DNA of 64,000 bases from the IMG/VR virus record IMGVR_UViG_3300025671_008697; one strand, written 5' to 3'. This DNA comes from a virus (taxonomy: Duplodnaviria; Caudoviricetes). The notes beneath the pieces were generated by a model. The model searched no databases, was not told the origin of the DNA, and saw nothing but the letters and a program-made list of their open reading frames with translations. Positions within the stretch are counted from its first letter, which is position 1; each line of letters begins with the position of its first letter. The translations under genes and the position numbers were made by a program. Positions 4,900 through 38,453 of this stretch are shown here, piece after piece.

Positions 4900-6338
4900 T
4901 CGCTTACTTACTTTGGATTTTAGCAGGCAGTTTATACGGTCTGCTGATAGGAGTGATACCAATTGCAGGAGTAACTACTGCGTTAATCACTGTGTTTGGT
5001 TTCGCTCCTTATTTCCTTAGTGACCCTTATGCTGGTATCGTGTTTCTTACCAGCATTATTGCTGCCTGCGCGGCTGCGGACAGTTATACCAGCATACTGA
5101 CAGGCATACCCGGGGCGTCAACCACTGCAGCCTGTGTTATAGATGGATACCCTATGACACAACAGGGCCAAGCAGGTCGTGCAATGGGCATTGCTATCTT
5201 CGACAGTACTGTCAACGGTGTGTTATACGGCACACTGGCATTTTTGTTGCTGCCATACTACGGACAAATTATTCTATGGTTTGGCATGCCTGAGTTTGCA
5301 GGCTTTATGTTAATGAGTCTTGCCTGTGTAGGATTTGTTGCCAGCAAAAATCCCTTTAAAAGTTTAATTGCAATTGCACTTGGATTATTCGTTGGTGTTA
5401 TAGGACAGGATCCTGCCACAGGTGCTTACCGTTTTACTTTTGGCTGGGAGTACTTAGGTGCAGGTGTACAAATGATTGCACTGATATCTGGCTTGTTTGG
5501 CATTCCAGAACTACTATGGGGGTTGAAAAATAGACATAAGCGTCCTCCAGTATTTGACCAGTACTGGCATCAATTACGTCAAGGTGTGCGTGACTGTATA
5601 GAATATAGACGTGACATGATGCGTGGTGGTGTAATAGGATTTGTCACAGGCTTACTGCCAGGTGTAGGTGGTGCAATAGGAGACTTTTTAGCCTATGGTT
5701 CCACAGTGGCGCGGCATCCAGATAAAAAGTTTGGTGAAGGCAATCCATTAGGCTTATTAGGATGCGAAGGTGCTAACAGTGCTCAAAAAGTGTCAAGTAT
5801 GTTGCCCACAGTGTTGTTTGGGATACCAGCCGCGCCTTTTGCTGCTATCATGATGGCACTGTGTATCTACTTTGGCATTGAACTGGGTACACCCATGTTA
5901 ATTTACGACACAGACTTTGTACTAAGCCTTGCTGCAGGATTTGTGGGCGGCAGTATTGTAGTAGGCATAGTCAGCGTAGTGTTCATGCGTTACATTGTAA
6001 AAATATTGGAAATACCCTATTGGATATATGCTACTATTATTTTAGCAGTTATTGTGTGGGCAAACTTTCAATACACACAGGGTTGGCAGGACATGGCCAT
6101 GCTGACATTATGTGGTACGTTAGGTATTGCGTGTAAATATTATGATATCAGCAGACCGGCATTGTTAGTAACTTATGTGGTAGCCGAACGTTTAGAAGGT
6201 TACATCTTACAGACCAATCAACTGTACACATGGGACCAATTGGTCACACGACCTTTGTTTGTGTTGACTGTGGCAGTGGCTGCATGGATTGTGTATAGAA
6301 GCATAAGAAATAAAAACCGAGGATTAAATTATGTCTAA
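4896..6338 (+). CDS. tctA: Tripartite tricarboxylate transporter large permease TctA-like
   Basis: About 12 hydrophobic segments; GIPGASTTAA, DGYPM, GLLPGVGG, EGANSA, GIPAAP signatures. Confidence 0.85.
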   Translation: MIAYLLWILAGSLYGLLIGVIPIAGVTTALITVFGFAPYFLSDPYAGIVFLTSIIAACAAADSYTSILTGIPGASTTAACVIDGYPMTQQGQAGRAMGIAIFDSTVNGVLYGTLAFLLLPYYGQIILWFGMPEFAGFMLMSLACVGFVASKNPFKSLIAIALGLFVGVIGQDPATGAYRFTFGWEYLGAGVQMIALISGLFGIPELLWGLKNRHKRPPVFDQYWHQLRQGVRDCIEYRRDMMRGGVIGFVTGLLPGVGGAIGDFLAYGSTVARHPDKKFGEGNPLGLLGCEGANSAQKVSSMLPTVLFGIPAAPFAAIMMALCIYFGIELGTPMLIYDTDFVLSLAAGFVGGSIVVGIVSVVFMRYIVKILEIPYWIYATIILAVIVWANFQYTQGWQDMAMLTLCGTLGIACKYYDISRPALLVTYVVAERLEGYILQTNQLYTWDQLVTRPLFVLTVAVAAWIVYRSIRNKNRGLNYV

Positions 6339-11557: not shown

Positions 11558-11701
11558 ATGTTGAGTAAACTCGAAAAAAACGCATCACAAGTTGTAAAAC
11601 CCACAGCAAAATCAGTGCAAAAGCCATGGTACTTTATCAGCGTGGGCGTAGGTACTCAAGCACAGCCACTGAGAAAAGGAGCACAAAAAAATGGCAACTG
11701 A
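11558..11701 (+). CDS. 47-aa leaderless ORF overlapping the endolysin start
   Basis: MLSKLEKNASQVVKPTAKSVQKPWYFISVGVGTQAQPLRKGAQKNGN; translated by hand, fills the gap before the lysin. Confidence 0.4.
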   Translation: MLSKLEKNASQVVKPTAKSVQKPWYFISVGVGTQAQPLRKGAQKNGN

Positions 11702-12569
11702 ATTTGAATTTGATTTTACAAAAGAACACCTAGCAGAAATTATATCTGCTGACGCAGATGATTGGTATGATGCACTGTGCGAACTGTTACCTAAATATGG
11801 TATTACCACAGAGCGCAGAGTAGCGCACTTTCTTAGCCAGTGTGCTCATGAATCAGCAGGCTTTAAGCGTCTAGAAGAAAATTTAAATTACAGTGCCAAG
11901 GCACTACGTGCAGTATTTGGTCGTTATTTTGGTGAACCACCCAAGCGTGACGCAGACGAATATCATCGTCAACCTGAAATGATTGCCAACTACGTGTACA
12001 TGGACGAGTTCCGCAAGTACAAAATGGGCAACGTTAATGAAGGTGATGGTTGGCTATTCCGTGGCCGAGGACTCAAGCAGTTGACAGGGCGTGAAAACTA
12101 CACACGTTTCGGTGCCAGCGTAGACATGACTGCAGAAGAAGCAGCAGAGTATGTGGCAACTCCTGCGGGTGCTATTGAAAGTGCCTGCTGGTTCTGGGAC
12201 GCAAACAACTTAAACGATATTGCAGACAGTGACGATGTCAAGCGTATGACTAAAAAGATCAACGGTGGTACTATTGGACTTGAAGACCGTCAAAAACGTT
12301 ATGTGCATGCCATGAAAGTGTTAGGCATGAGTGCAGAAGAAATAGCAGCAGATGATGACGACGAAGTAGAGATAGAAGATATCGGTGTACTACGTAAAGG
12401 CTGCAGAGGTGACGGTGTCAAGATGATGCAGGCTGCATTAGGTCTAGATGCTGACGGTGTGTTTGGTCCCGGCACAGAACGTGCATTGAAGCAATGGCAG
12501 ACAGACAACGGTTTAACTGCTGACGGTATTGCAGGTCCTAAGACTTTAGAAAAACTTTTAGAGGACTGA
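11691..12569 (+). CDS. Endolysin: GH19 catalytic domain plus C-terminal peptidoglycan-binding repeats
   Basis: AHFLSQCAHES, EENLNYS, RGRGLKQLTG, INGG; DGVFGPGT and DGIAGPKT PG_binding_1-like repeats; SD AGGAG. Confidence 0.9.
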   Translation: MATEFEFDFTKEHLAEIISADADDWYDALCELLPKYGITTERRVAHFLSQCAHESAGFKRLEENLNYSAKALRAVFGRYFGEPPKRDADEYHRQPEMIANYVYMDEFRKYKMGNVNEGDGWLFRGRGLKQLTGRENYTRFGASVDMTAEEAAEYVATPAGAIESACWFWDANNLNDIADSDDVKRMTKKINGGTIGLEDRQKRYVHAMKVLGMSAEEIAADDDDEVEIEDIGVLRKGCRGDGVKMMQAALGLDADGVFGPGTERALKQWQTDNGLTADGIAGPKTLEKLLED

Positions 12570-14891: not shown

Positions 14892-15725
14892 GTGGATTAC
14901 TATCAAACGTTGGGTGTTAGCAGAACTGCTAATGCCGACGAACTCAAACGTGCCTATAGAAAATTGGCCAGTCAGCACCACCCCGACAGAGGCGGGGATA
15001 CTGCACGATTTCAGGAAATACAGGCTGCTTACGATACATTAAGTGATCCTCAAAAGCGACAACAATACGATAATCCTCAACCACAACATCAGCATTTTGA
15101 ATTTAATTTTGGTCCAGGAGGTATGGATGAGATATTCAGCAACTTTTTTCGAGGACATCAAAATCCATTTCAACATGCTAGGCAACAACCCAGACGCAAT
15201 AAGGATATAAGAGCAGAAGTCGCTATAGGTTTGCAGGAAACATTAACAGATGCTAAACGTACTTTGAATATAAAAAGTCAAAATGGCGTAGTGCAAACTG
15301 TTGATATAACCATACCTCGAGGAGTCAGTGCTGGTACTACTATTAAGTATCCGGGTCTGGGTGATTATCTTTTTGAAAACTTACCCAGGGGTGATCTGTA
15401 CTTAACAGTTAACATTTATCATAATCCAAATTTCGAAGTTTCAGGTTTAGATTTAGTTACAAATTTGACTATAGACTCGTTTGATGCTATACTAGGAGTA
15501 GATGCACAAATTGTAGGCCTAGATGGCAAAGTTTTTACAGTAAGAACTCCCAAAAGTTGTCAGCACGGAACAAAACTCAAGATACCAGGAGAAGGTCTGT
15601 ATAAATTTCAACAGGATATTAAAGGAAACTTGTATGTGAAAATCCACATTAAAGTACCCTTTAATTTGACAGATGAACAACTAGAACAAATTAGAACAAT
15701 TAAACAACAACTAACTGCACGGTAA
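14892..15725 (+). CDS. dnaJ: DnaJ/CbpA-type co-chaperone (no zinc finger)
   Basis: J-domain DYYQTLGV...HHPD; C-terminal GDLYL and KIPGEG motifs. Confidence 0.9.
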
Positions 15726-15728
15726 ATA
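15723..15728 (+). promoter_or_regulatory. TAAATA late-type promoter overlapping the dnaJ stop
   Basis: 5 nt before the clpA ATG, no SD. Confidence 0.55.
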
Positions 15729-15733
15729 TTTTT

Positions 15734-18028
15734 ATGGTACAATCAAATCCAGACATAGAACGAATTATTGAAATGGCTACCAACATTGCCCAAAGTAAAC
15801 ATCACGAGTATGTAACTCTAGAGCATATACTACAAGGCATGTTGGCTTATGACCAATTCGCAGATTTCTTAGGCAAATTTGGCGTAGATGTTGAAAGTAT
15901 GCAAAAAGATCTAGATGCATACTTAGATCGCCAAGAGTATTTAGTTAGTAAAGTATATGATGTTGTACCAAAGAAAACACACAGTCTCGAGCGTGTGTTC
16001 AATCGTGCATTTACACAGGTTTTATTCAGTGGCAGGCATAACTTGCAAACAATAGATTTGTTTTTAAGTATCATGACAGAAGATAAAAGTTATGCTACTT
16101 ACATAATCAACAAGTATGGTTGCGAGCGTAGCAAACTAGTTAGTTTATGGAACAAAACTTTTCAAGAAAAGCATGGCGGAAAACGCAGTAAAAACCATGC
16201 TGACCAGGTGTTAGCGGAATATTGCGACAACTTAAATGTTCTTGTCAATGAAGGTAAAATTGATCCTGTAATTGGTAGAGAACACGAGATAGACGAAATC
16301 AGCCAAGTTTTAGCCAAACGAAACAAGAGCAATATATTGATGGTAGGTGATCCTGGTGTGGGCAAAACTGCTATTGCCGAAGGACTGGCACATAAAATTG
16401 TTAATCAAGAAGTACCTGCTTACCTTAAAGACTTTACTGTATTCAGTTTAGATATTGGTAGTTTGCTGGCAGGCAGTAAGTATCGTGGTGAGTTTGAAGA
16501 AAAAGTCAAAGAGGTAATGAAAGCATTGACTGTAAAAGGCAACTGTATTTTGTTCATCGATGAAGCACACCAGATGCGTGGCGCAGGCACAGGCAGTAAC
16601 AGTGGTCCCGACTTTGCCAACATGATTAAACCTGCATTAACTAAACGCAATGTCAAAGTTATTGCCTCAACTACATGGGAAGAATACACACAGAGTTTTG
16701 AAAAAGACCGTGCGCTAATGCGCCGCTTTTATCGTATGACTGTGGAAGAGCCCACACCTGAAGTTGCTAAAGAAATCCTAGTAGGATTAAAAGAATACTT
16801 CGAAGAGTTTCACGGCGGCGAGATCAGTGCAGAAGCCATCGAAGCCGCAGTAGATCTCAGTGTGCGCTACCAAACAGACAAACGACTGCCAGACAAAGCC
16901 ATTGATCTAATTGACACTGCGGCAGCAAAACTTAAAATCTATACCACAGGTTTTGTTGTACGCAAAAGTCACATTATTGATGCACTCAGTAAGTTTACTA
17001 AGATTCCAATTGAGCAGTTAGACACAGAAGCCACTAAGAACCTCGAAACACTGGAAGGTGACATTAAAGAAAAACTCTACGGACAGGATCAAGCAGTGGA
17101 CAACGTGCTTGAAAAGATTTATGTTAGCCGTGCAGGTTTGAAAGCAATCAACAAACCTGTAGGCACGTTTTTGTTCTTAGGCCCAACTGGTACAGGTAAA
17201 ACTGAACTGGCAAAACTGCTGGCAGAAAATTTGGGCATGAAACTGTTACGCTATGACATGAGCGAATACCAAGAACGTCACAGTGTGGCCAAACTGATCG
17301 GTGCACCTCCTGGGTATGTTGGCTACGATGATGGCAATCTGGGTGGCGGACTACTAATTAGTGATGTAGAGAAAAATCCCAACAGTGTTATCTTGTTTGA
17401 CGAAGTTGAAAAAGCGCACCCTGACGTCAGTAACGTATTGCTGAGTTTGATGGACGAAGGTGTAGTAACCAGCAGCAACGGCAAAAAAGCAGACTGTAGG
17501 AATACCATTGTTATTATGACCAGTAACTTGGGTGCTGCCGAAAGCGAACGTAATAGTATCGGCTTTGCCAGTTTGTCCAAAACAGGCGAAGATGACGCCG
17601 CAGTTAAAGAATTCTTTAAACCTGAGTTTAGAAATCGTTTAGACGGCATTGTTAAATTTAACAAACTGGCCACAGAAACTGTACGCAAGATTGTGGTCAA
17701 GTTTGTTGAAGAAATGAACGACTTGCTCAGTGACAAACGTATCTACGTCGAACTAAGCACCAGCGCCATTGATCACATTATTGACAAAGGTTACGATGAC
17801 AAGATGGGTGCTCGTCCGCTAAATAGAAAAATTAACGAACTTATCAAAGTTCCTTTGAGTAAACGTATATTGTTTGAAAATTTGCAAAATTGTACTGTAA
17901 ATGTCGAATATTATGATGGGGATTTACAATTTAACATTACCGAAAACACTTACCTGGTATACCCCACAGACAGCACCATAGACGAAAATGGCTATATTAT
18001 CCTGGACAAAATTAAATCCAACTGTTAA
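15734..18028 (+). CDS. clpA: ClpA-like Hsp100 AAA+ unfoldase
   Basis: Clp N-domain, GKIDPVIGR, GDPGVGKT, FIDEAH, LPDKAIDL, GPTGTGKT, LFDEVEKAHP, IGF loop. Confidence 0.9.
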   Translation: MVQSNPDIERIIEMATNIAQSKHHEYVTLEHILQGMLAYDQFADFLGKFGVDVESMQKDLDAYLDRQEYLVSKVYDVVPKKTHSLERVFNRAFTQVLFSGRHNLQTIDLFLSIMTEDKSYATYIINKYGCERSKLVSLWNKTFQEKHGGKRSKNHADQVLAEYCDNLNVLVNEGKIDPVIGREHEIDEISQVLAKRNKSNILMVGDPGVGKTAIAEGLAHKIVNQEVPAYLKDFTVFSLDIGSLLAGSKYRGEFEEKVKEVMKALTVKGNCILFIDEAHQMRGAGTGSNSGPDFANMIKPALTKRNVKVIASTTWEEYTQSFEKDRALMRRFYRMTVEEPTPEVAKEILVGLKEYFEEFHGGEISAEAIEAAVDLSVRYQTDKRLPDKAIDLIDTAAAKLKIYTTGFVVRKSHIIDALSKFTKIPIEQLDTEATKNLETLEGDIKEKLYGQDQAVDNVLEKIYVSRAGLKAINKPVGTFLFLGPTGTGKTELAKLLAENLGMKLLRYDMSEYQERHSVAKLIGAPPGYVGYDDGNLGGGLLISDVEKNPNSVILFDEVEKAHPDVSNVLLSLMDEGVVTSSNGKKADCRNTIVIMTSNLGAAESERNSIGFASLSKTGEDDAAVKEFFKPEFRNRLDGIVKFNKLATETVRKIVVKFVEEMNDLLSDKRIYVELSTSAIDHIIDKGYDDKMGARPLNRKINELIKVPLSKRILFENLQNCTVNVEYYDGDLQFNITENTYLVYPTDSTIDENGYIILDKIKSNC

Positions 18029-20301: not shown

Positions 20302-20304
20302 CGC

Positions 20305-20331
20305 TAAATACTATATTAATCTTAGTATAGT
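20305..20331 (+). promoter_or_regulatory. TAAATA motif plus 9-bp AT-rich inverted repeat abutting the ATG
   Basis: TAAATA 20305-20310; stem 20310-20318 pairs with 20323-20331 (one G-U); no SD. Confidence 0.45.
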
Positions 20332-22683
20332 ATGTATTCGTTTGAACTTTTTGAAGCACCTAAAAATATTGTAGTCTTATATGCAGGGCGTTTCCAGCCC
20401 TTCCACAAAGGACACAGAGCAGTCTACGAATACCTTGTAAAAAAGTTCGGCCGTGATGCTGTCTACATTAGCACCAGCAACAAAACTGACAACGATAAAA
20501 GTCCTTTTACATTCAGCGACAAAGCATATTTTATGCAGATCCAAGGTATTCCTATGGATCGTGTCAGAGAAACAAATCAGCCCTATCAAAATCCCGAATT
20601 AGTAAAAACATTTGATCCTGAAAACACTGCACTGATTGTGGCAGTTAGCGACAAAGACAAGGATCGCTTTGGCAAGATTGGATTTAAGAAAGACGGTAGT
20701 TTAAGTTTCTTCCAGGACATACCCAATGAACTTGGAGACATGGCTCCCATTAGCCAGCACGGTTATGTAATGACTGTGCCCACATTTGATTTCAATGTAT
20801 ATGGTAAACCTATGCGTAGTGCTACAGAAGTACGTGCTATGTATCGAGCAGCCAACGAGCAAGTACGTAAAGAAATAATTAAGGATCTATTTGGCAAGTG
20901 GACAAAGGAAGCCGAACAGATCATGAATGCCAAACTACAAGAAGACATCATGCCAGCAAGTCAGGGCACTATCAGTCCTGTTCATGAAAGTTGGAGCAAA
21001 AAATACAAGAAAAGTATCGATTGCAGCAACCCCAAAGGCTTTAGTCAAAAGGCGCACTGTGCTGGACGCAAAGCAAGACAAGGCGGTAAAAAGACAAAAA
21101 GTCAAAGTGTAAGTGAAAACTTAGAAGGACGCATGATTGATCTTACTAAAAACTTTCCTACTTACACAAGTTTAATCGGTAAAATTACAAAAGAAAATCC
21201 CACTAAAGTTACAATCGAAATCGTACAGGCAGATGGTCCAGGCAACGTAAAAGTTGGTGATGAACTACGCATTGCCACAAACTATATTAAACGACTGCCT
21301 ATTACAGAAAGTCATCATACAGACATTCCCGGCATGCTGGAAAAGTTTTTGCCAATTGCAATGAAAGAATTAGGCATTGCTAAACTACCCAGCATTAAGT
21401 TAACCAAGCACCTAAAGCCACACGGCACACAGGCCAGTTTTGGCATGTACAACCCAGACGATGGCAAAATTTATTTGGCCGTTGCTGATCGTCACCCCGT
21501 AGACATTTTACGAACATTGGCACACGAACTGGTACACTTTAGTCAAGACGGCAAACATGAGTTAGATGCAGACAGTGGTGAAACAGGCAGTGATGAAGAA
21601 AACGAAGCCAACTCAGTTGCCGGCGTCATTATGCGTCAGTTCAACAATGAGTTTCCTGATGCAATTAAGAGCGAACCACTATTAGCAGAAAACTTATTAA
21701 ACAAGGCAACACCAACTCCACAAGAAATTATGCAAAAGCATGGCATGACTGATCAAGAGTTTATGCAGCAACTACGTTTGGGTCGTGCAGTGGAAATGGA
21801 ACACACAAACAATCCAAAGGTAGCAATTGAAATTGCCTTGGACCACATCAATGAACGCCCAGACTACTACACTATGTTAAAAAGTGTAGAACGTCCTATG
21901 GGCGAAAGTAAAAAAAAAGTAGTTAGCGCAAACTACGGCATTGGCAAAACGCCCGGTGCACTAGCACGAGTAGGACCCAAAGGTCAAGTACCCCGTGCTC
22001 GACTACACGTTAACGTTCCTAAGAAGACTGCTATAAAATTAGGTATACCTCACACACATCTTAAAGAAGCGTTCGACGCACCTTACCCAATGACTTGGGA
22101 ACACGGTGACGATAACGAGTCACATGATGCACTGGTTAAACTACCAGACGGTACTAACCTAAGCATTATGTTCAGCAAGGAGTATGCCGAGCCTGACTAC
22201 GTAGAAGAAGAATGGCAAGTAGAGTTTTATCGCAACCACAGTCAAGATGTCACAGGCGAAGGTGATGCACAGCGTATATTTGCCACAGTATTGAGTGCTA
22301 TCCAACAGTTTATTAAATTAGAAGAACCAAAGCGTATAAAATTTAGTGCCGCTAAACAAACAGGCGATATGACGCCAAATGCCAGCAGAACAAGTTTATA
22401 TAACAGACTTGTACAACGTTTTGCCAATAATTTAGGGTATGGCGTAAAAACTACAGACCATTCATTGAATACAGTGTATGAATTAGAAAAATTGCAAGAA
22501 GGCATGGCGGAAAACTTTGCCGACGGTAAGGTAAAAGGCCGAAGTCGCCCAGGGCGTGTAAAAGCAGCAGGCGCAAGTTGTAAAGGATCAGTCACTGACT
22601 TACGTGCTCGAGCAAAAAAGTATAGTGGTGAACGTGGTAAAATGTATCACTGGTGTGCAAACATGAAAGCAGGGAAAAAATAA
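20332..22683 (+). CDS. Modular putative internal head polyprotein: NMNAT-like HxGH domain, basic Cys peptides, HExxH zincin-like domain, other modules
   Basis: MYSFELFEA N-terminus; GRFQPFHKGH and SATEVR; LAHELVH; modules bounded by LQE, VHE, VSE, ITE, LAE, MGE, LKE, LQE. Confidence 0.65.
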   Translation: MYSFELFEAPKNIVVLYAGRFQPFHKGHRAVYEYLVKKFGRDAVYISTSNKTDNDKSPFTFSDKAYFMQIQGIPMDRVRETNQPYQNPELVKTFDPENTALIVAVSDKDKDRFGKIGFKKDGSLSFFQDIPNELGDMAPISQHGYVMTVPTFDFNVYGKPMRSATEVRAMYRAANEQVRKEIIKDLFGKWTKEAEQIMNAKLQEDIMPASQGTISPVHESWSKKYKKSIDCSNPKGFSQKAHCAGRKARQGGKKTKSQSVSENLEGRMIDLTKNFPTYTSLIGKITKENPTKVTIEIVQADGPGNVKVGDELRIATNYIKRLPITESHHTDIPGMLEKFLPIAMKELGIAKLPSIKLTKHLKPHGTQASFGMYNPDDGKIYLAVADRHPVDILRTLAHELVHFSQDGKHELDADSGETGSDEENEANSVAGVIMRQFNNEFPDAIKSEPLLAENLLNKATPTPQEIMQKHGMTDQEFMQQLRLGRAVEMEHTNNPKVAIEIALDHINERPDYYTMLKSVERPMGESKKKVVSANYGIGKTPGALARVGPKGQVPRARLHVNVPKKTAIKLGIPHTHLKEAFDAPYPMTWEHGDDNESHDALVKLPDGTNLSIMFSKEYAEPDYVEEEWQVEFYRNHSQDVTGEGDAQRIFATVLSAIQQFIKLEEPKRIKFSAAKQTGDMTPNASRTSLYNRLVQRFANNLGYGVKTTDHSLNTVYELEKLQEGMAENFADGKVKGRSRPGRVKAAGASCKGSVTDLRARAKKYSGERGKMYHWCANMKAGKK

Positions 22684-29410: not shown

Positions 29411-30036
29411 TGCGTAGAGATCCAACAGAACTGTTCAAACCTGAAGACAGCGAACTTCGCAGAATTAAGAACAAGTACGTTCCTGAGTGGAGCATGTTGG
29501 ATTATACTGTGCTAGAATGTGCATGGGAGTTTGTAGACGCACAGACTGCGATGCGTTTTGCCTATGAAATGTACAGACTGGGCGAAGACATGGATCACAA
29601 CGCTGTGGTTAAAATAGATCATAACAGTGTTGAAGTACAGATTAGAACCGGCGACGTTGACGGATTAACTATATTAGATTTTGAATTTGCACTTAAAGCA
29701 ACTGCTGTTGCAGAACAGTTAAAGGGCGACAGACTCAGCAAAGTCAAAAACGAACTGGGCGAAGCCTATCAGGGTGGACTACGCAAGTGGTTTAAAGAAA
29801 AATGGGTCAACATTGCCAAGAAGAAAAAAGGCGGCGGCTACGAAGAATGCGGCAGCAGTGGTGACAAAAAAGGCTATGCCAAATGCGTACCAGCTGCAAA
29901 AGCTGCTGGTATGTCATCTAGTGAAAAGAAAAGTGCAGTACAACGTAAACGTAGCGCACAACGTAAAGCAGGCAGACCCGGCAAGAAAAGTGGCGCTAAA
30001 GGCAAGGCTCCAATAAGGGTAAGTACAAAGAAATGA
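29410..30036 (+). CDS. Pterin-4a-carbinolamine dehydratase-like domain fused to a basic Cys-containing module
   Basis: AMRFAYEMYRLGEDMDHNAVVKIDHNSVEVQIRTGDVDGLTILDFEFA resembles PCD; after LGE comes GGLRKWFKEKWV...KCVP. Confidence 0.5.
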   Translation: MRRDPTELFKPEDSELRRIKNKYVPEWSMLDYTVLECAWEFVDAQTAMRFAYEMYRLGEDMDHNAVVKIDHNSVEVQIRTGDVDGLTILDFEFALKATAVAEQLKGDRLSKVKNELGEAYQGGLRKWFKEKWVNIAKKKKGGGYEECGSSGDKKGYAKCVPAAKAAGMSSSEKKSAVQRKRSAQRKAGRPGKKSGAKGKAPIRVSTKK

Positions 30037-31469
30037 AAATCGTTGAACTAAAATGCTGGCCTGGCTATGAGCGTGTACCTGGAACCAAAGCAGGTGCTGT
30101 AGGTAGTTGCCGCAAAACGAGTTCTAAAAACGAAGATGCTGCTAACCCAGCCAATCTTGGCCTAACTATATTTGACATAGACGACACACTAATGCATACT
30201 ACTGCAAAGATACGTGTTGTCAAAGACGGCAAAACCGTACGTGAATTAACCAATCAGGAGTTTAATAACTACAAACTAGAACCAGGCGAACAGTTTGACT
30301 TTGGTGAGTTTCGTAGTGCAGAAAAGTTTGCCAAGGAAAGTGAACCCATACGCCCTATGATTGCTAAACTAAAAGCAATCATGAAAAACGCAGGAAACAG
30401 CAAAGTTATAATGCTGACTGCAAGAGCAGACTTTGATGACAGAGATACTTTCCTAGACACTTTCCGCAAGTACGGTATAGACATTGACAACATCCATGTG
30501 CACCGCGCAGGCAATATTCCAGGACCAGAAACTCCAGCGCTGAAAAAAGCAGTTTGGGTACGCAGATATTTAGACACTGGCATGTACAACAGAGTCAGAC
30601 TGTACGATGATTCAATGAGCAATCTGCGTGCATTCAAAGATTTAAAAGATGAATATCCTGCAGTAGACTTTAAGGCCTATTACGTAGGTCCCAGCGGCAG
30701 TAGCACTGTTGTAGAAGTAGACCTTAAAGGCAAGTTAGCAACAGGTGCTGTGGCAGGCGCACTGGCTGTGGGTCAGGGTGGCGCACTTGTTAACAAACTC
30801 ACAGACCCCGACAGTCCTCGCTATCAGGTTCCTAAAGATGCAGCCACATACCAAATGAAGGAACCACCACGTGAACTGCCCAAGTCACTGCCTGCTGCAC
30901 AGCCTAAACAACAGACTGCACCTCAGGTCCGAGCAGAACCAAAGGCAGTTAATTTGACTGGCAGTCCTTACGAAACACTGATGCGTAAAGTAGCACAAGC
31001 CAGTGGCATACAGGGCACAGAACTGGCAGCGTTTATGGCACAGATGGCGCACGAAAGTATGGACTTTACTCGCATGTACGAAAAGGGTATCAAACGTTAC
31101 TTTAATCGCTATGATCCCAGATACAATCCAGGCACTGCTAAAATATTAGGCAACACTCGTGCAGGCGATGGCTACAAGTACAGAGGCAGAGGTTTTATAC
31201 AGTTAACTGGGCGTGACAACTATACCCGTGCAGGCAGAGACCTAGGTATTGACTTAGCGAACAAACCAGACTTAGCAGCTGATCCTAAAATAGCAGCACA
31301 AATTGCAGTATGGTTTTGGAAAAACAGAGTGCAACCAAAGGTAGATGACTTCAGCAACGTAAATGATGTAACACGCAGTATCAATCCCAACATGCGTGGT
31401 CTGAAAGATCGTGCAGAAAACTTCAAACAGTATCAGGTTGCTATGGCAGACACTGGAGCAGATTCATGA
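30033..31469 (+). CDS. Modular protein: basic Cys peptide, HAD phosphatase and GH19 lysozyme-like domain
   Basis: MKIVE; KCWPGYERV; IFDIDDTL, MLTAR, LYDDS; AQMAHES, YRGRGFIQLTGRDNY. Confidence 0.75.
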   Translation: MKIVELKCWPGYERVPGTKAGAVGSCRKTSSKNEDAANPANLGLTIFDIDDTLMHTTAKIRVVKDGKTVRELTNQEFNNYKLEPGEQFDFGEFRSAEKFAKESEPIRPMIAKLKAIMKNAGNSKVIMLTARADFDDRDTFLDTFRKYGIDIDNIHVHRAGNIPGPETPALKKAVWVRRYLDTGMYNRVRLYDDSMSNLRAFKDLKDEYPAVDFKAYYVGPSGSSTVVEVDLKGKLATGAVAGALAVGQGGALVNKLTDPDSPRYQVPKDAATYQMKEPPRELPKSLPAAQPKQQTAPQVRAEPKAVNLTGSPYETLMRKVAQASGIQGTELAAFMAQMAHESMDFTRMYEKGIKRYFNRYDPRYNPGTAKILGNTRAGDGYKYRGRGFIQLTGRDNYTRAGRDLGIDLANKPDLAADPKIAAQIAVWFWKNRVQPKVDDFSNVNDVTRSINPNMRGLKDRAENFKQYQVAMADTGADS

Positions 31470-37304: not shown

Positions 37305-38453
37305 ATGGCAATTGATAATAAAATTTTAGAAATATTAGGTAGAGAAGAATACAGGCAAGGCAACACCATAGAACTTATAGCAAGTGAAAACTTTGCCAGT
37401 GAAGTAGTGCGTAATCTCTGTGCTAGTGTGTTTACCAACAAGTATGCAGAAGGTATTCCTGGCAGACGTTTTTATAATGGTTGCGAACACGCAGATGAAA
37501 TTGAACGTCTGGCAATTGAATACGCTACAACACTGTTTGGGTGTCAATTTGCCAATGTTCAACCACATAGCGGTGCTAACGCCAACCTTGCAGTATTCAA
37601 AGCATTACTTAAACCTGGAGATGTTATCTTAGGTATGGATCTGAGTAATGGTGGACATCTGAGTCATGGAAGTCATGTTAACCTAAGTGGTGCTTGGTTC
37701 AGAGCTGCCAAATATACATTAGGACAAGATGGCCTAATAGACTATATAGAAGTAGATAAATTGGCTCAAGAACTAAAACCTAAATTGATCATTGCAGGTG
37801 CTAGTAATTATAGCCAAGTTATCGATTGGGCAAGGTTTAGGCAAATTGCCGACAAAGTAGGTGCAAAACTATTATGTGACATAGCACACTACAGTGGATT
37901 GATTGCCGGCGGACAATACCCCAATCCTTTCCCACATGCTCATATCGCTACTAGCACTACACACAAAACATTACGCGGTCCAAGAGGTGGAATAATTCTA
38001 TGGAACGACAACGATTTATCGGCAAAAATTAACAACGCAGTTTTTCCTGGCACACAAGGCGGACCTTTGATGCATATTATTGCTGCCAAGGCACAGTGTT
38101 TTCACGAGGCATTGCAAAAAGATTTCAGAGAATACAGCCGGCAAGTTATCTTAAATGCAAAAGCAATGGTAGAAGTATTCAAAGAAAATGATGTAGATAT
38201 AGTTAGTAATGGTACTGAATGTCACATGTTTACTTTAGACTTAGGCAAAGAATCTTATAGTGGAAGACAACTTGCAGATAGACTAGAGGAAAAAGGAATT
38301 ACTGTGAATAAAAATGCAGTACCAGGAGATACCAGAAGTTTTGTTGAAACTAGTGGAATCAGAATTGGCACTGCTGCTGAAACTACTAGAGGACACAACG
38401 AAGAATGGTTTAGAGAACTTGCTCAGAATATTGTTAATATTTTGAGAACTTAA
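37305..38453 (+). CDS. glyA: Serine hydroxymethyltransferase
   Basis: LIASENF, NKYAEG, NVQPHSG, GGHLSHG, PLP-lysine TTHKTLRGPRGG, SGIRIGT. Confidence 0.95.
   Translation: MAIDNKILEILGREEYRQGNTIELIASENFASEVVRNLCASVFTNKYAEGIPGRRFYNGCEHADEIERLAIEYATTLFGCQFANVQPHSGANANLAVFKALLKPGDVILGMDLSNGGHLSHGSHVNLSGAWFRAAKYTLGQDGLIDYIEVDKLAQELKPKLIIAGASNYSQVIDWARFRQIADKVGAKLLCDIAHYSGLIAGGQYPNPFPHAHIATSTTHKTLRGPRGGIILWNDNDLSAKINNAVFPGTQGGPLMHIIAAKAQCFHEALQKDFREYSRQVILNAKAMVEVFKENDVDIVSNGTECHMFTLDLGKESYSGRQLADRLEEKGITVNKNAVPGDTRSFVETSGIRIGTAAETTRGHNEEWFRELAQNIVNILRT

Follow-up and report, generated by a model that had tools for sequence, protein, structure and literature searches.

A Candidate Capsid-Targeted Polyprotein Punctuated by Prohead Protease Motifs in a T4-Superfamily Jumbo Phage

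Results

The IMG/VR virus record IMGVR_UViG_3300025671_008697 was analyzed as a whole stretch of 64,000 nt, hereafter the window, and the subject of this work is an open reading frame (ORF) that runs in it from 20332 to 22683 on the plus strand. This ORF opens with ATG and encodes 783 residues, and it is real as judged from the reading frame and from an identical protein on public record (P0002, from two contigs). An initial annotation had read it as a string of unrelated modules set apart by hydrophobic-x-Glu sites, that is, as a cargo polyprotein to be released by a Glu-specific prohead protease. Iterated profiles were built for eight modules and run against the relatives of the ORF and against all ORFs of 165 fetched loci. 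By its sequence, ORF 20332–22683 is a mosaic of these eight modules, which are listed below with the flanking and linking elements (residue numbers are those of the ORF product).

20304–20310, plus strand: CTAAATA, 28 nt ahead of the ATG; possible core of a late promoter of the T4 type, weak
20332–20355, plus strand, residues 1–8: leader MYSFELFE, candidate capsid-targeting propeptide that ends in hydrophobic-x-Glu and is followed by module A
20356–20943, plus strand, residues 9–204: module A, NMNAT-like nucleotidyltransferase with HKGH at 24–27 and SATEVR at 163–168; ends LQE
20944–20988, plus strand, residues 205–219: A–B linker; ends VHE, a second, redundant site ahead of module B
20989–21117, plus strand, residues 220–262: module B, basic Cys peptide SWSKKYKKSIDCSNPKGFSQKAHCAGRK.., net charge +10; ends VSE
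21118–21309, plus strand, residues 263–326: module C, small domain, family unassigned; ends ITE
21310–21690, plus strand, residues 327–453: module D, minimal zincin metallopeptidase by predicted fold; ends LAE
21691–21906, plus strand, residues 454–525: module E, DUF5661 helical module (..AVEMEH..ALDH..); ends MGE
21907–22068, plus strand, residues 526–579: module X, basic peptide ..VSANYGIGK.., net charge +11, no Cys; ends LKE
22069–22500, plus strand, residues 580–723: module F, DUF6934 domain with GNAT-like predicted fold; ends LQE
22501–22512, plus strand, residues 724–727: joint GMAE, second site of the F–G linker
22513–22680, plus strand, residues 728–783: module G, basic Cys peptide NFADGKVKGRSRPGRVK..MYHWCANMKAGKK, net charge +13, predicted helical

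All hydrophobic-x-Glu tripeptides on which the polyprotein proposal had been built are present, and their nucleotide positions agree:

N-terminal part: LFE at residues 6–8; LQE at 202–204 (nt 20943); VHE at 217–219 (nt 20988); VSE at 260–262
Middle: ITE at residues 324–326 (nt 21309); LAE at 451–453 (nt 21690); MGE at 523–525 (nt 21906)
C-terminal part: LKE at residues 577–579 (nt 22068); LQE at 721–723 (nt 22500); MAE at 725–727

The pattern [LIVM]xE occurs 18 times in the ORF against 11.4 ± 2.9 times in shuffled sequences (z ~2.3), mildly above chance, and with so modest an excess the list of sites by itself would not carry the polyprotein claim. Ten of the 18 sites fall within the 73 inter-module residues (odds ratio 14, p 6.5e-7), a test of placement that is partly circular because the module limits were drawn from homology breakpoints. 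The net charges of the predicted products, in the order A, B, C, D, E, X, F, G, are +4, +10, +1, −9, −3, +11, −10 and +13, and thus alternate along the chain.

Matches in Pfam comprise a cytidylyltransferase-like domain (16–103), DUF5661 (464–520) and, weakly, DUF6934 (638–701), and PHROGs return a weak metalloprotease match together with two families of unknown function over residues 572–715. Most of the domain calls that had been made from the letters alone held up in these and the following comparisons. Module A, called an HxGH transferase, passes the cut-off of PF01467 (E 3.9e-6), its matches to the NMNAT equivalog models of NCBIfam are weak (20–34 bits, cut-offs 127–449), and NMNATs are its best PDB relatives by sequence (E 1e-3). 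Within this lineage the leader is kept on the transferase module (MYAHELFE, MYAFELFE and others); in another lineage the module has no leader and begins directly with M-KQVIIMPGGFHPFH. Module C has 10 local homologs, which are preceded by ..ITE↓S or ..VNE↓S (the arrow marks the joint between modules here and below). The helical EMEH..DH module E is DUF5661 (PF18905, E 7.8e-12); the same domain also occurs within a DUF2213 domain-containing protein of the 54-kb Vibrio phage vB_VpaM_VPs20 (OP056089.1), and thus also in a much smaller phage and a different protein context.

Two regions, residues 322–458 and residues 566–783 (the latter from 24 F–G pairs), were folded separately with AlphaFold2 (AF2). 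The first gave a model with a mean predicted local distance difference test score (pLDDT) of 86.4 and a predicted template-modeling score of 0.83, in which the disordered ends carry ITE and LAE, with residues 322–327, the C–D joint, among the disordered ones. Its Foldseek matches are minigluzincins (abylysin, selecase), Wss1/SprT and IrrE, so that the HExxH domain recognized earlier as zincin-like has the predicted fold of a minimal zincin; in Pfam there are weak matches only (DUF6647, DUF6782, M76, Tox-MPTase3), and H398, E399, H402 and E423 are invariant in the alignment. The second model contains a confident alpha/beta domain at residues 579–720 (pLDDT ~84–92), for which Foldseek returns nearly exclusively GNAT acetyltransferases (probability 1.0, E ~1e-3, template-modeling score 0.3–0.45). 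The domain that had been left without a name is DUF6934, by a Pfam match below the cut-off, with a GNAT-like predicted fold. pLDDT drops below 50 at residues 724–738 and confidence is also low at 566–577, the segments holding LQE/MAE and LKE, respectively. Across the 24 aligned F–G pairs E727 is invariant and the length of the linker varies.

The two basic Cys peptides of the initial annotation are borne out as modules B and G, and a third basic peptide, module X, had not been singled out. Elsewhere module X is preceded by ..LAE↓AVTVNYGISK and ..LNE↓SQVTVNYGIG. Peptide G comes in variants with two Cys (..GASCxGSV..MYHWCANMK..) or with none (..GVNTKASV..MAHWLANMK..), and this joint gain or loss of the Cys pair suggests a disulfide or a shared metal site. 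Searches with the small peptides against Pfam, NCBIfam and PDB sequences returned nothing meaningful; an "OAR motif" match on peptide G was rejected as a chance match on a basic stretch.

We then compared the ORF with its relatives. For the ORF and the surrounding 24 kb no nucleotide match was found in cultured phages, and tblastn against 50,697 phage records gave no full-length relative, each piece matching different cultured phages: the basic Cys peptide (213–249) shares as much as 81% identity with T4-like cyanophages, the HExxH piece resembles Synechococcus phages B3 and B23, residues 562–714 resemble KVP40-type vibriophages and the DUF5661 piece resembles Caulobacter phage Cr30. A large protein collection yielded over 1,500 mosaic relatives, whose contigs reach 366 kb and whose partner domains include deaminase, GNAT, Pol-beta nucleotidyltransferase, SLT, GH19, Nudix, ParB, SOD and amidoligase. 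BLAST against ~120 relatives places the breakpoints in clusters at residues 217–219 (VHE↓S), 450–458 (LAE↓N), 577–579 (LKE↓A) and 721–729 (LQE/MAE↓N); at the first of these, alignments end at residue 218 in 18 cases and start at 217 or 219 in 19. The initial annotation had staked its reading on homolog module boundaries coinciding with the Glu sites, and they do coincide. It had also anticipated relatives with the same modules in other orders joined at these sites, and we found at least 39 orders with joints at Glu (39 in the local set, counting the eight modules of this ORF only).

Whatever lies upstream, the first residue of modules B, F and G is an invariant Glu with a conserved stretch behind it, E-[KAS]-W-S-x-K-Y-K, E-A-F-D-x-P-Y and E-N-F-A-D-G-K, respectively. 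[VLI]-x-E precedes module B in 56 contexts, module F starts as E-[AS]-[FL]-D behind [VIL]-x in 83, and hydrophobic-x-E precedes module G in 119 non-redundant contexts. Numbering residues backward from the joint, P1 is Glu at all 243 of 243 non-redundant internal starts of B, F and G, and P3 is L, I, V, M or F at 90.5% of these; elsewhere in these proteins, at 6,332 further Glu residues, the share is 26.6% (Fisher p 3e-94). P2 varies freely (A, D, N, T, S, E, K), and P5 leans to E or Q. For replication, a profile of the F–G alignment was searched exhaustively against 1.84 billion representative proteins, giving 6,649 at E ≤1e-3, and in the 144 new best proteins the 266 starts have a hydrophobic P3 in 89% versus 22.7% (p 5e-110).

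Module D continues as ..KPL-x-hydrophobic-x-E only when another module comes next, and where it is C-terminal the chain stops at ..KPLDL. Close relatives (82–86% identity) have gained or exchanged entire modules, and the changes fall precisely on MGE↓, LAE/VVE↓ and MAE/VAE↓, as the proposed modularity would have it. For instance, P0003 (83% identical) runs collinear as far as ..RPMGE, after which an extra module (~62 residues, ending in ..KKLEE↓) precedes the ..ANYGIGK module, and it carries ~250 additional residues between ..EGVAE↓ and ..ELSE↓NFADGK. In P0005 (82% identical) the extra module of P0003 replaces DUF5661, between ..PLVVE↓ and ..KKLEE↓.

Proteins that open with B, F or G have M[RK]xxE[FI][IV]xE ahead of that module (15 cases in the first set, 41 in the replication set), as in MRAWEFITE↓NFADG, MRAHEFIAE↓AFDQ and MRASEFVSE↓KWSE, and in some proteins module G stands alone behind MRAWEFITE↓ or MKVREIISE↓. 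As a sequence, this leader is much like the capsid-targeting sequence, 10 residues long, of T4 internal proteins, with the gp21 motif at its end. The start of our ORF, MYSFELFE↓A, is likewise a leader of ~10 residues ending in hydrophobic-x-Glu; it is similar to the capsid-targeting sequence of T4 IPIII (PMC9026906) and is predicted to have the targeting role. Cultured T4-like phages have single modules as separate ORFs behind leaders of the T4 type: Synechococcus phage Bellamy gp122 (MKSFKQFQE↓SWSNKYKKSIDCSNPKGFSQKAHCAGRKK.., 51 residues, beside a tail-fibre gene), Synechococcus phage S-SM2 gp108 (..EEFRE↓SWSNKYKK..), phage B23 gp332 (MNYKQFLRE↓.. and then the HExxH module) and Vibrio phage nt-1 ORF252, a module F homologue (..VNLTE↓AFDKP..).

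Some neighbors of these stand-alone genes deserve mention in their own right. The nt-1 block around ORF252 (NC_021529.2 149196–154627) includes ORF249 and ORF256, annotated as prohead protease inhibitor, and a neighboring gene starts with MIEFLTE↓; this block may be a cargo island with protease regulators. The genes that follow the Cys-peptide ORF in the cyanophages, S-SM2 gp109 and Bellamy gp123, are themselves made up of small basic modules in a row (..CKAGQYFCYTDKVCKPIPKG.., ..GLRDWFGKSKSKDGKKGWVQV..C..PKCVSSAKRASMSKSE.. like DUF5872), and cultured T4-like cyanophages may thus have such polyproteins too.

The DNA polymerase of the window is of the T4-type family B and is closest to that of Sinorhizobium phage Phosso (51%), Agrobacterium phage Atu_ph07 (46%) and Rak2/121Q-type jumbo phages (42%), relationships that place the window among T4-superfamily jumbo phages. 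Its nearest long IMG/VR relative, G006 (338.5 kb, 97% complete), has a polymerase that is 82% identical and encodes an 868-residue protein with the order A-(deaminase)-D-B-...-G. G006 also encodes a Peptidase_S77 (gp21) homologue (92.5 bits), and thereby a Glu-specific protease of the gp21 family, the initial annotation having invoked a Glu-specific prohead protease. Its head genes are in T4 order, comprising an acidic protein, the protease, a coiled-coil scaffold and a gp23-type capsid protein (329 bits). The N-terminal region of this capsid protein reads ..HLAE↓NATAGATSAGN.. and aligns with what we take to be the mature N-terminal region of T4 gp23. Peptidase_S77 is likewise found in three further module carriers (G004, G005 and G012).

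The initial annotation had seen the same design in four more ORFs of the window, and this is supported for ORF 27077 (its first module), ORF 29410 and ORF 30033; of the design, ORF 24532 (LysM + SLT) has a leader-like start only. ORF 27077 starts MLTGDLFQPLTE↓KKKKPKPTKPEKW.., and its basic module (..VYPSAYANAWAAKKY.., the PSAYAN module) is found in ~90 other proteins, where hydrophobic-x-E precedes it in 97% of 63 non-redundant contexts. ORF 29410 consists of a leader, a pterin-4a-carbinolamine dehydratase-like domain, ..ELGE↓ and a DUF5872 basic module that elsewhere stands directly behind MRASEFITE↓. ORF 30033 reads MKIVE↓, Cys peptide, ..KNE↓, HAD-like domain and GH19.

Beside these ORFs we note the following. 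The window holds two GH19 (chitinase/endolysin-type) domains, one at 11691–12569 in a 292-residue endolysin-like protein with a C-terminal binding domain and one within 30033–31469 closing the leader-tagged ORF 30033; this suggests a lysis copy and a virion-borne copy. At 14892–18028, an ORF that looks J-domain-like by eye is immediately followed by a full-length double AAA+ chaperone of the ClpB type (764 residues; PHROG 4871, E 4e-244), and the phage would then encode a DnaJ-like/ClpB pair shortly before its cargo block. In the interval from the cargo block to the replication genes, at 37305–38453, sits a methyltransferase-like gene whose 382-residue product matches PHROG 9968 "methyltransferase" near end to end (E 7e-157).

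Discussion

Module boundaries, reordered mosaics and leader-tagged single modules all agree with the interpretation first put forward from the sequence, and we consider it probable that ORF 20332–22683 of this T4-superfamily jumbo phage encodes a capsid-targeted polyprotein that is cut by the prohead protease. The gene would be expressed late, and the whole chain would be recruited to the prohead scaffolding core via its leader MYSFELFE, as T4 internal proteins are. Once activated, a gp21-type protease would cut after Glu in hydrophobic-x-Glu at ~10 exposed linker sites and free eight products, namely the NMNAT-like transferase, the minimal zincin, the GNAT-like domain, DUF5661, the small domain and three basic peptides (+10 to +13). 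The basic peptides would most likely remain with the packaged DNA, and the enzymes probably travel inside the head, from which they may pass into the host alongside the DNA. With a T4-type protease motif at every joint, one gene probably supplies a kit of separate capsid proteins.

Several points weigh against this reading. Cleavage, loading, retention and injection are what we infer, for this phage as for its relatives. The prohead protease is known only from relatives, and in G006 the homologue of the ORF is not adjacent to the head genes. A further genome, G003 (IMGVR_UViG_3300032268_000986, L020; 343 kb, with a completeness rating of 99%), shows leaders of the MRAQEFIV type and joints of hydrophobic-x-E on the same modules, and gave no match to Peptidase_S77 or Gp23 even at an E of 10; either its head genes are too diverged to detect or a different protease serves the motif. 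At 8 residues, the leader of our ORF is unlike the commoner MRAxEFIxE type, P3 is mostly Val as opposed to L/I in the T4 motif, and the ORF's own zincin could contribute to processing. Evidence for a late promoter is weak as well. CTAAATA has 20 matches in the window versus 14.1 ± 3.9 in shuffled sequences, is therefore not enriched and serves as a mere lead rather than as evidence; it also precedes ORF 24015, and the late-promoter search of the window gave a single occurrence of TATAAATA, on the other strand.

The joints could alternatively belong to an uncut multidomain "polyvalent" effector in which hydrophobic-x-Glu is a structural cap or linker feature, and we regard this as unlikely. Large multidomain phage proteins that are delivered uncut are known, N4 virion RNA polymerase being an example (PMC5512222), and the cuts proposed here are, again, something we infer. 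The invariant Glu could moreover be part of the first helix of module F, which by DSSP starts at model residue 15. Such a cap would have to be shared by no fewer than four unrelated modules (B, F and G, and in ORF 27077 the PSAYAN module), all of which keep the P3/P1 constraint with P2 free and with any sequence upstream. The motif also follows module D only if more follows, the same tripeptide terminates the leaders of stand-alone modules, and the joints are disordered and of variable length, all of which argues against the uncut chain.

We consider it quite improbable that the boundaries are only recombination hot spots, located in the conserved first codons of the modules (ENFADGK, EKWSxKYK, EAFDxPY) and of no proteolytic role. 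The near-invariance of the first 6–8 residues of B, F and G would favor exchange, in line with the extreme mosaicism of 39 orders of eight modules, and recombination at conserved module starts may well drive the shuffling, which is compatible with cleavage. What recombination by itself leaves unexplained is the selection of a hydrophobic P3, with P2 free, in unrelated upstream sequence, the occurrence of leaders that end in the same tripeptide, and the motif after module D with differing partners.

No more credible is a chain that is cut by its embedded zincin, module D, with the prohead protease uninvolved. By sequence this module appears intact, with an invariant H-E-x-x-H and the downstream Glu, and it has been suggested that phage P1 DdrB and polyvalent proteins are autoprocessed by domains of this kind (PMC5512222). 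Of the joint-bearing proteins, however, no more than 63 of 192 in the local set and 2 of 144 in the independent set contain module D. As most joint-bearing relatives are devoid of module D, we rejected zincin autoprocessing as a general mechanism. Leader-tagged stand-alone modules likewise occur without a zincin, the motif is that of gp21, and module D is itself leader-tagged cargo in phage B23 (gp332).

Finally, we give very little credence to the idea, which is a sub-variant of processing by the prohead protease with the same first steps, that the pieces are not injected effectors but core/scaffold-like filler and DNA counter-ions, with the acidic pieces exiting the head: basic pieces (+10, +11, +13) do alternate with acidic ones (−9, −10), most T4 core fragments exit the head after cleavage (PMC9026906) and no other modules are conserved as widely as the basic peptides (81% identity to cyanophage copies), yet the seemingly intact catalytic motifs of transferase and zincin and the predicted folded, enzyme-like domains argue for more than filling.

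Processing by the prohead protease, the reading we prefer, builds on components known from T4. There, gp21 cleaves on the C-terminal side of Glu within L/I-X-E, the N-terminal 10 residues of IPIII are enough to bring a protein into the head, and the capsid-targeting sequence may have evolved as a means by which T4-like phages load varied proteins (PMC9026906); IPI, IPII, IPIII and Alt have the capsid-targeting sequence and are processed by gp21 (Mullaney and Black 1996; reviewed in PMC9026906). Shared with our system are the short M-K/R-x-x-E-F-I-x-E leader, the hydrophobic-x-Glu motif (cleavage after Glu being a prediction here), a gp21-family protease in the clade and the use of one address label on unrelated cargo. 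In T4, however, the cargo is made from separate genes with one propeptide (two for Alt), whereas here a chain has up to eight modules with a site at each joint; T4 has L/I at P3 where we find mostly Val, and the versions seen here are shuffled in their thousands.

Polyvalent proteins, as described by Iyer, Burroughs, Anand, de Souza and Aravind in 2017 (PMC5512222), are alike in having many unrelated effector-like domains per chain, extreme mosaicism and predicted co-delivery with DNA. Zincin, GNAT, nucleotidyltransferase, lysozyme, ParB and deaminase domains recur among the relatives of our ORF, and its eight unrelated modules are within the polyvalent range of two to fifteen effector-type domains. 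Polyvalent proteins have MuF, portal or ArdC-type anchors, and their processing is ascribed to the MPTase zincin (PMC5512222); no MuF or portal domain was found here, and the regular prohead-protease motif at the joints together with T4-type leaders is a feature of our system and not of the polyvalent account (PMC5512222). Head proteins of phiKZ-like phages, inner-body and ejection proteins among them, are cleaved at multiple sites after Glu, in an S/A-X-E motif (PMC9026906, PMC5694885, PMC7411985, PMC10052503). The phiKZ gp175 and SPN3US gp245 substrates resemble our chain in Glu cleavage by a diverged gp21, in several or redundant propeptide sites (candidate sites here) and in pieces that are DNA-associated or ejected (as would be the case here), but differ in a small P3 and in forming paralogous families, as opposed to the shuffled unrelated enzyme modules here. 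A phiKZ-type S/A-X-E reading of our joints was rejected, P3 being V/L/I/M/F in ~90% and Ala in 4 of 243 and 3 of 266 (<2%).

Full-text literature searches returned no description of leader-tagged polyproteins punctuated by a prohead-protease motif, the literature on DUF5872, DUF5661, DUF6934 and T4-like/cyanophage polyproteins or capsid-targeting does not describe the system, and the searchable literature contained no virion proteome of a carrier of these modules. The components (capsid-targeting sequence, gp21 and L/I-X-E) are known from T4, and the punctuated multi-module chain appears, from the literature searched, to be a new variation on them.

Conclusions

If the cuts are real, a leader plus the hydrophobic-x-Glu rule would allow the packaged cargo of uncultured T4-type phages to be read from sequence, and the two-module profile of ORF 20332–22683 already reaches 6,649 protein clusters, in which transferases, deaminases, acetyltransferases, peptidases, lysozymes and Nudix, ParB and SOD domains are combined. 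Much aquatic phage "dark matter" would then turn into candidate first-minute effectors and DNA-packing peptides. Ready natural joints and leaders would also become available for loading T4-type capsids with multiple proteins, which are now loaded one at a time via the T4 sequence. The prediction is open to test in cultured cyanophages and vibriophages that have the same modules.

More tentatively, and at somewhat less than even chance in our estimation, T4-superfamily phages of oceans and lakes may run an open "plug-in" capsid-cargo system. Any small domain equipped with a hydrophobic-x-Glu joint could enter a leader-tagged chain, be loaded into the prohead in a fixed ratio to its neighbors and be released by the maturation protease. 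The ubiquitous basic peptides of 40–60 residues, some with a covarying Cys pair, would be a new class of protamine-like DNA counter-ions or of DNA-bound head effectors. Should this hold, polyprotein processing, a hallmark of RNA viruses and retroviruses, would be widespread in double-stranded DNA phages and would cover thousands of families that are now annotated as hypothetical.

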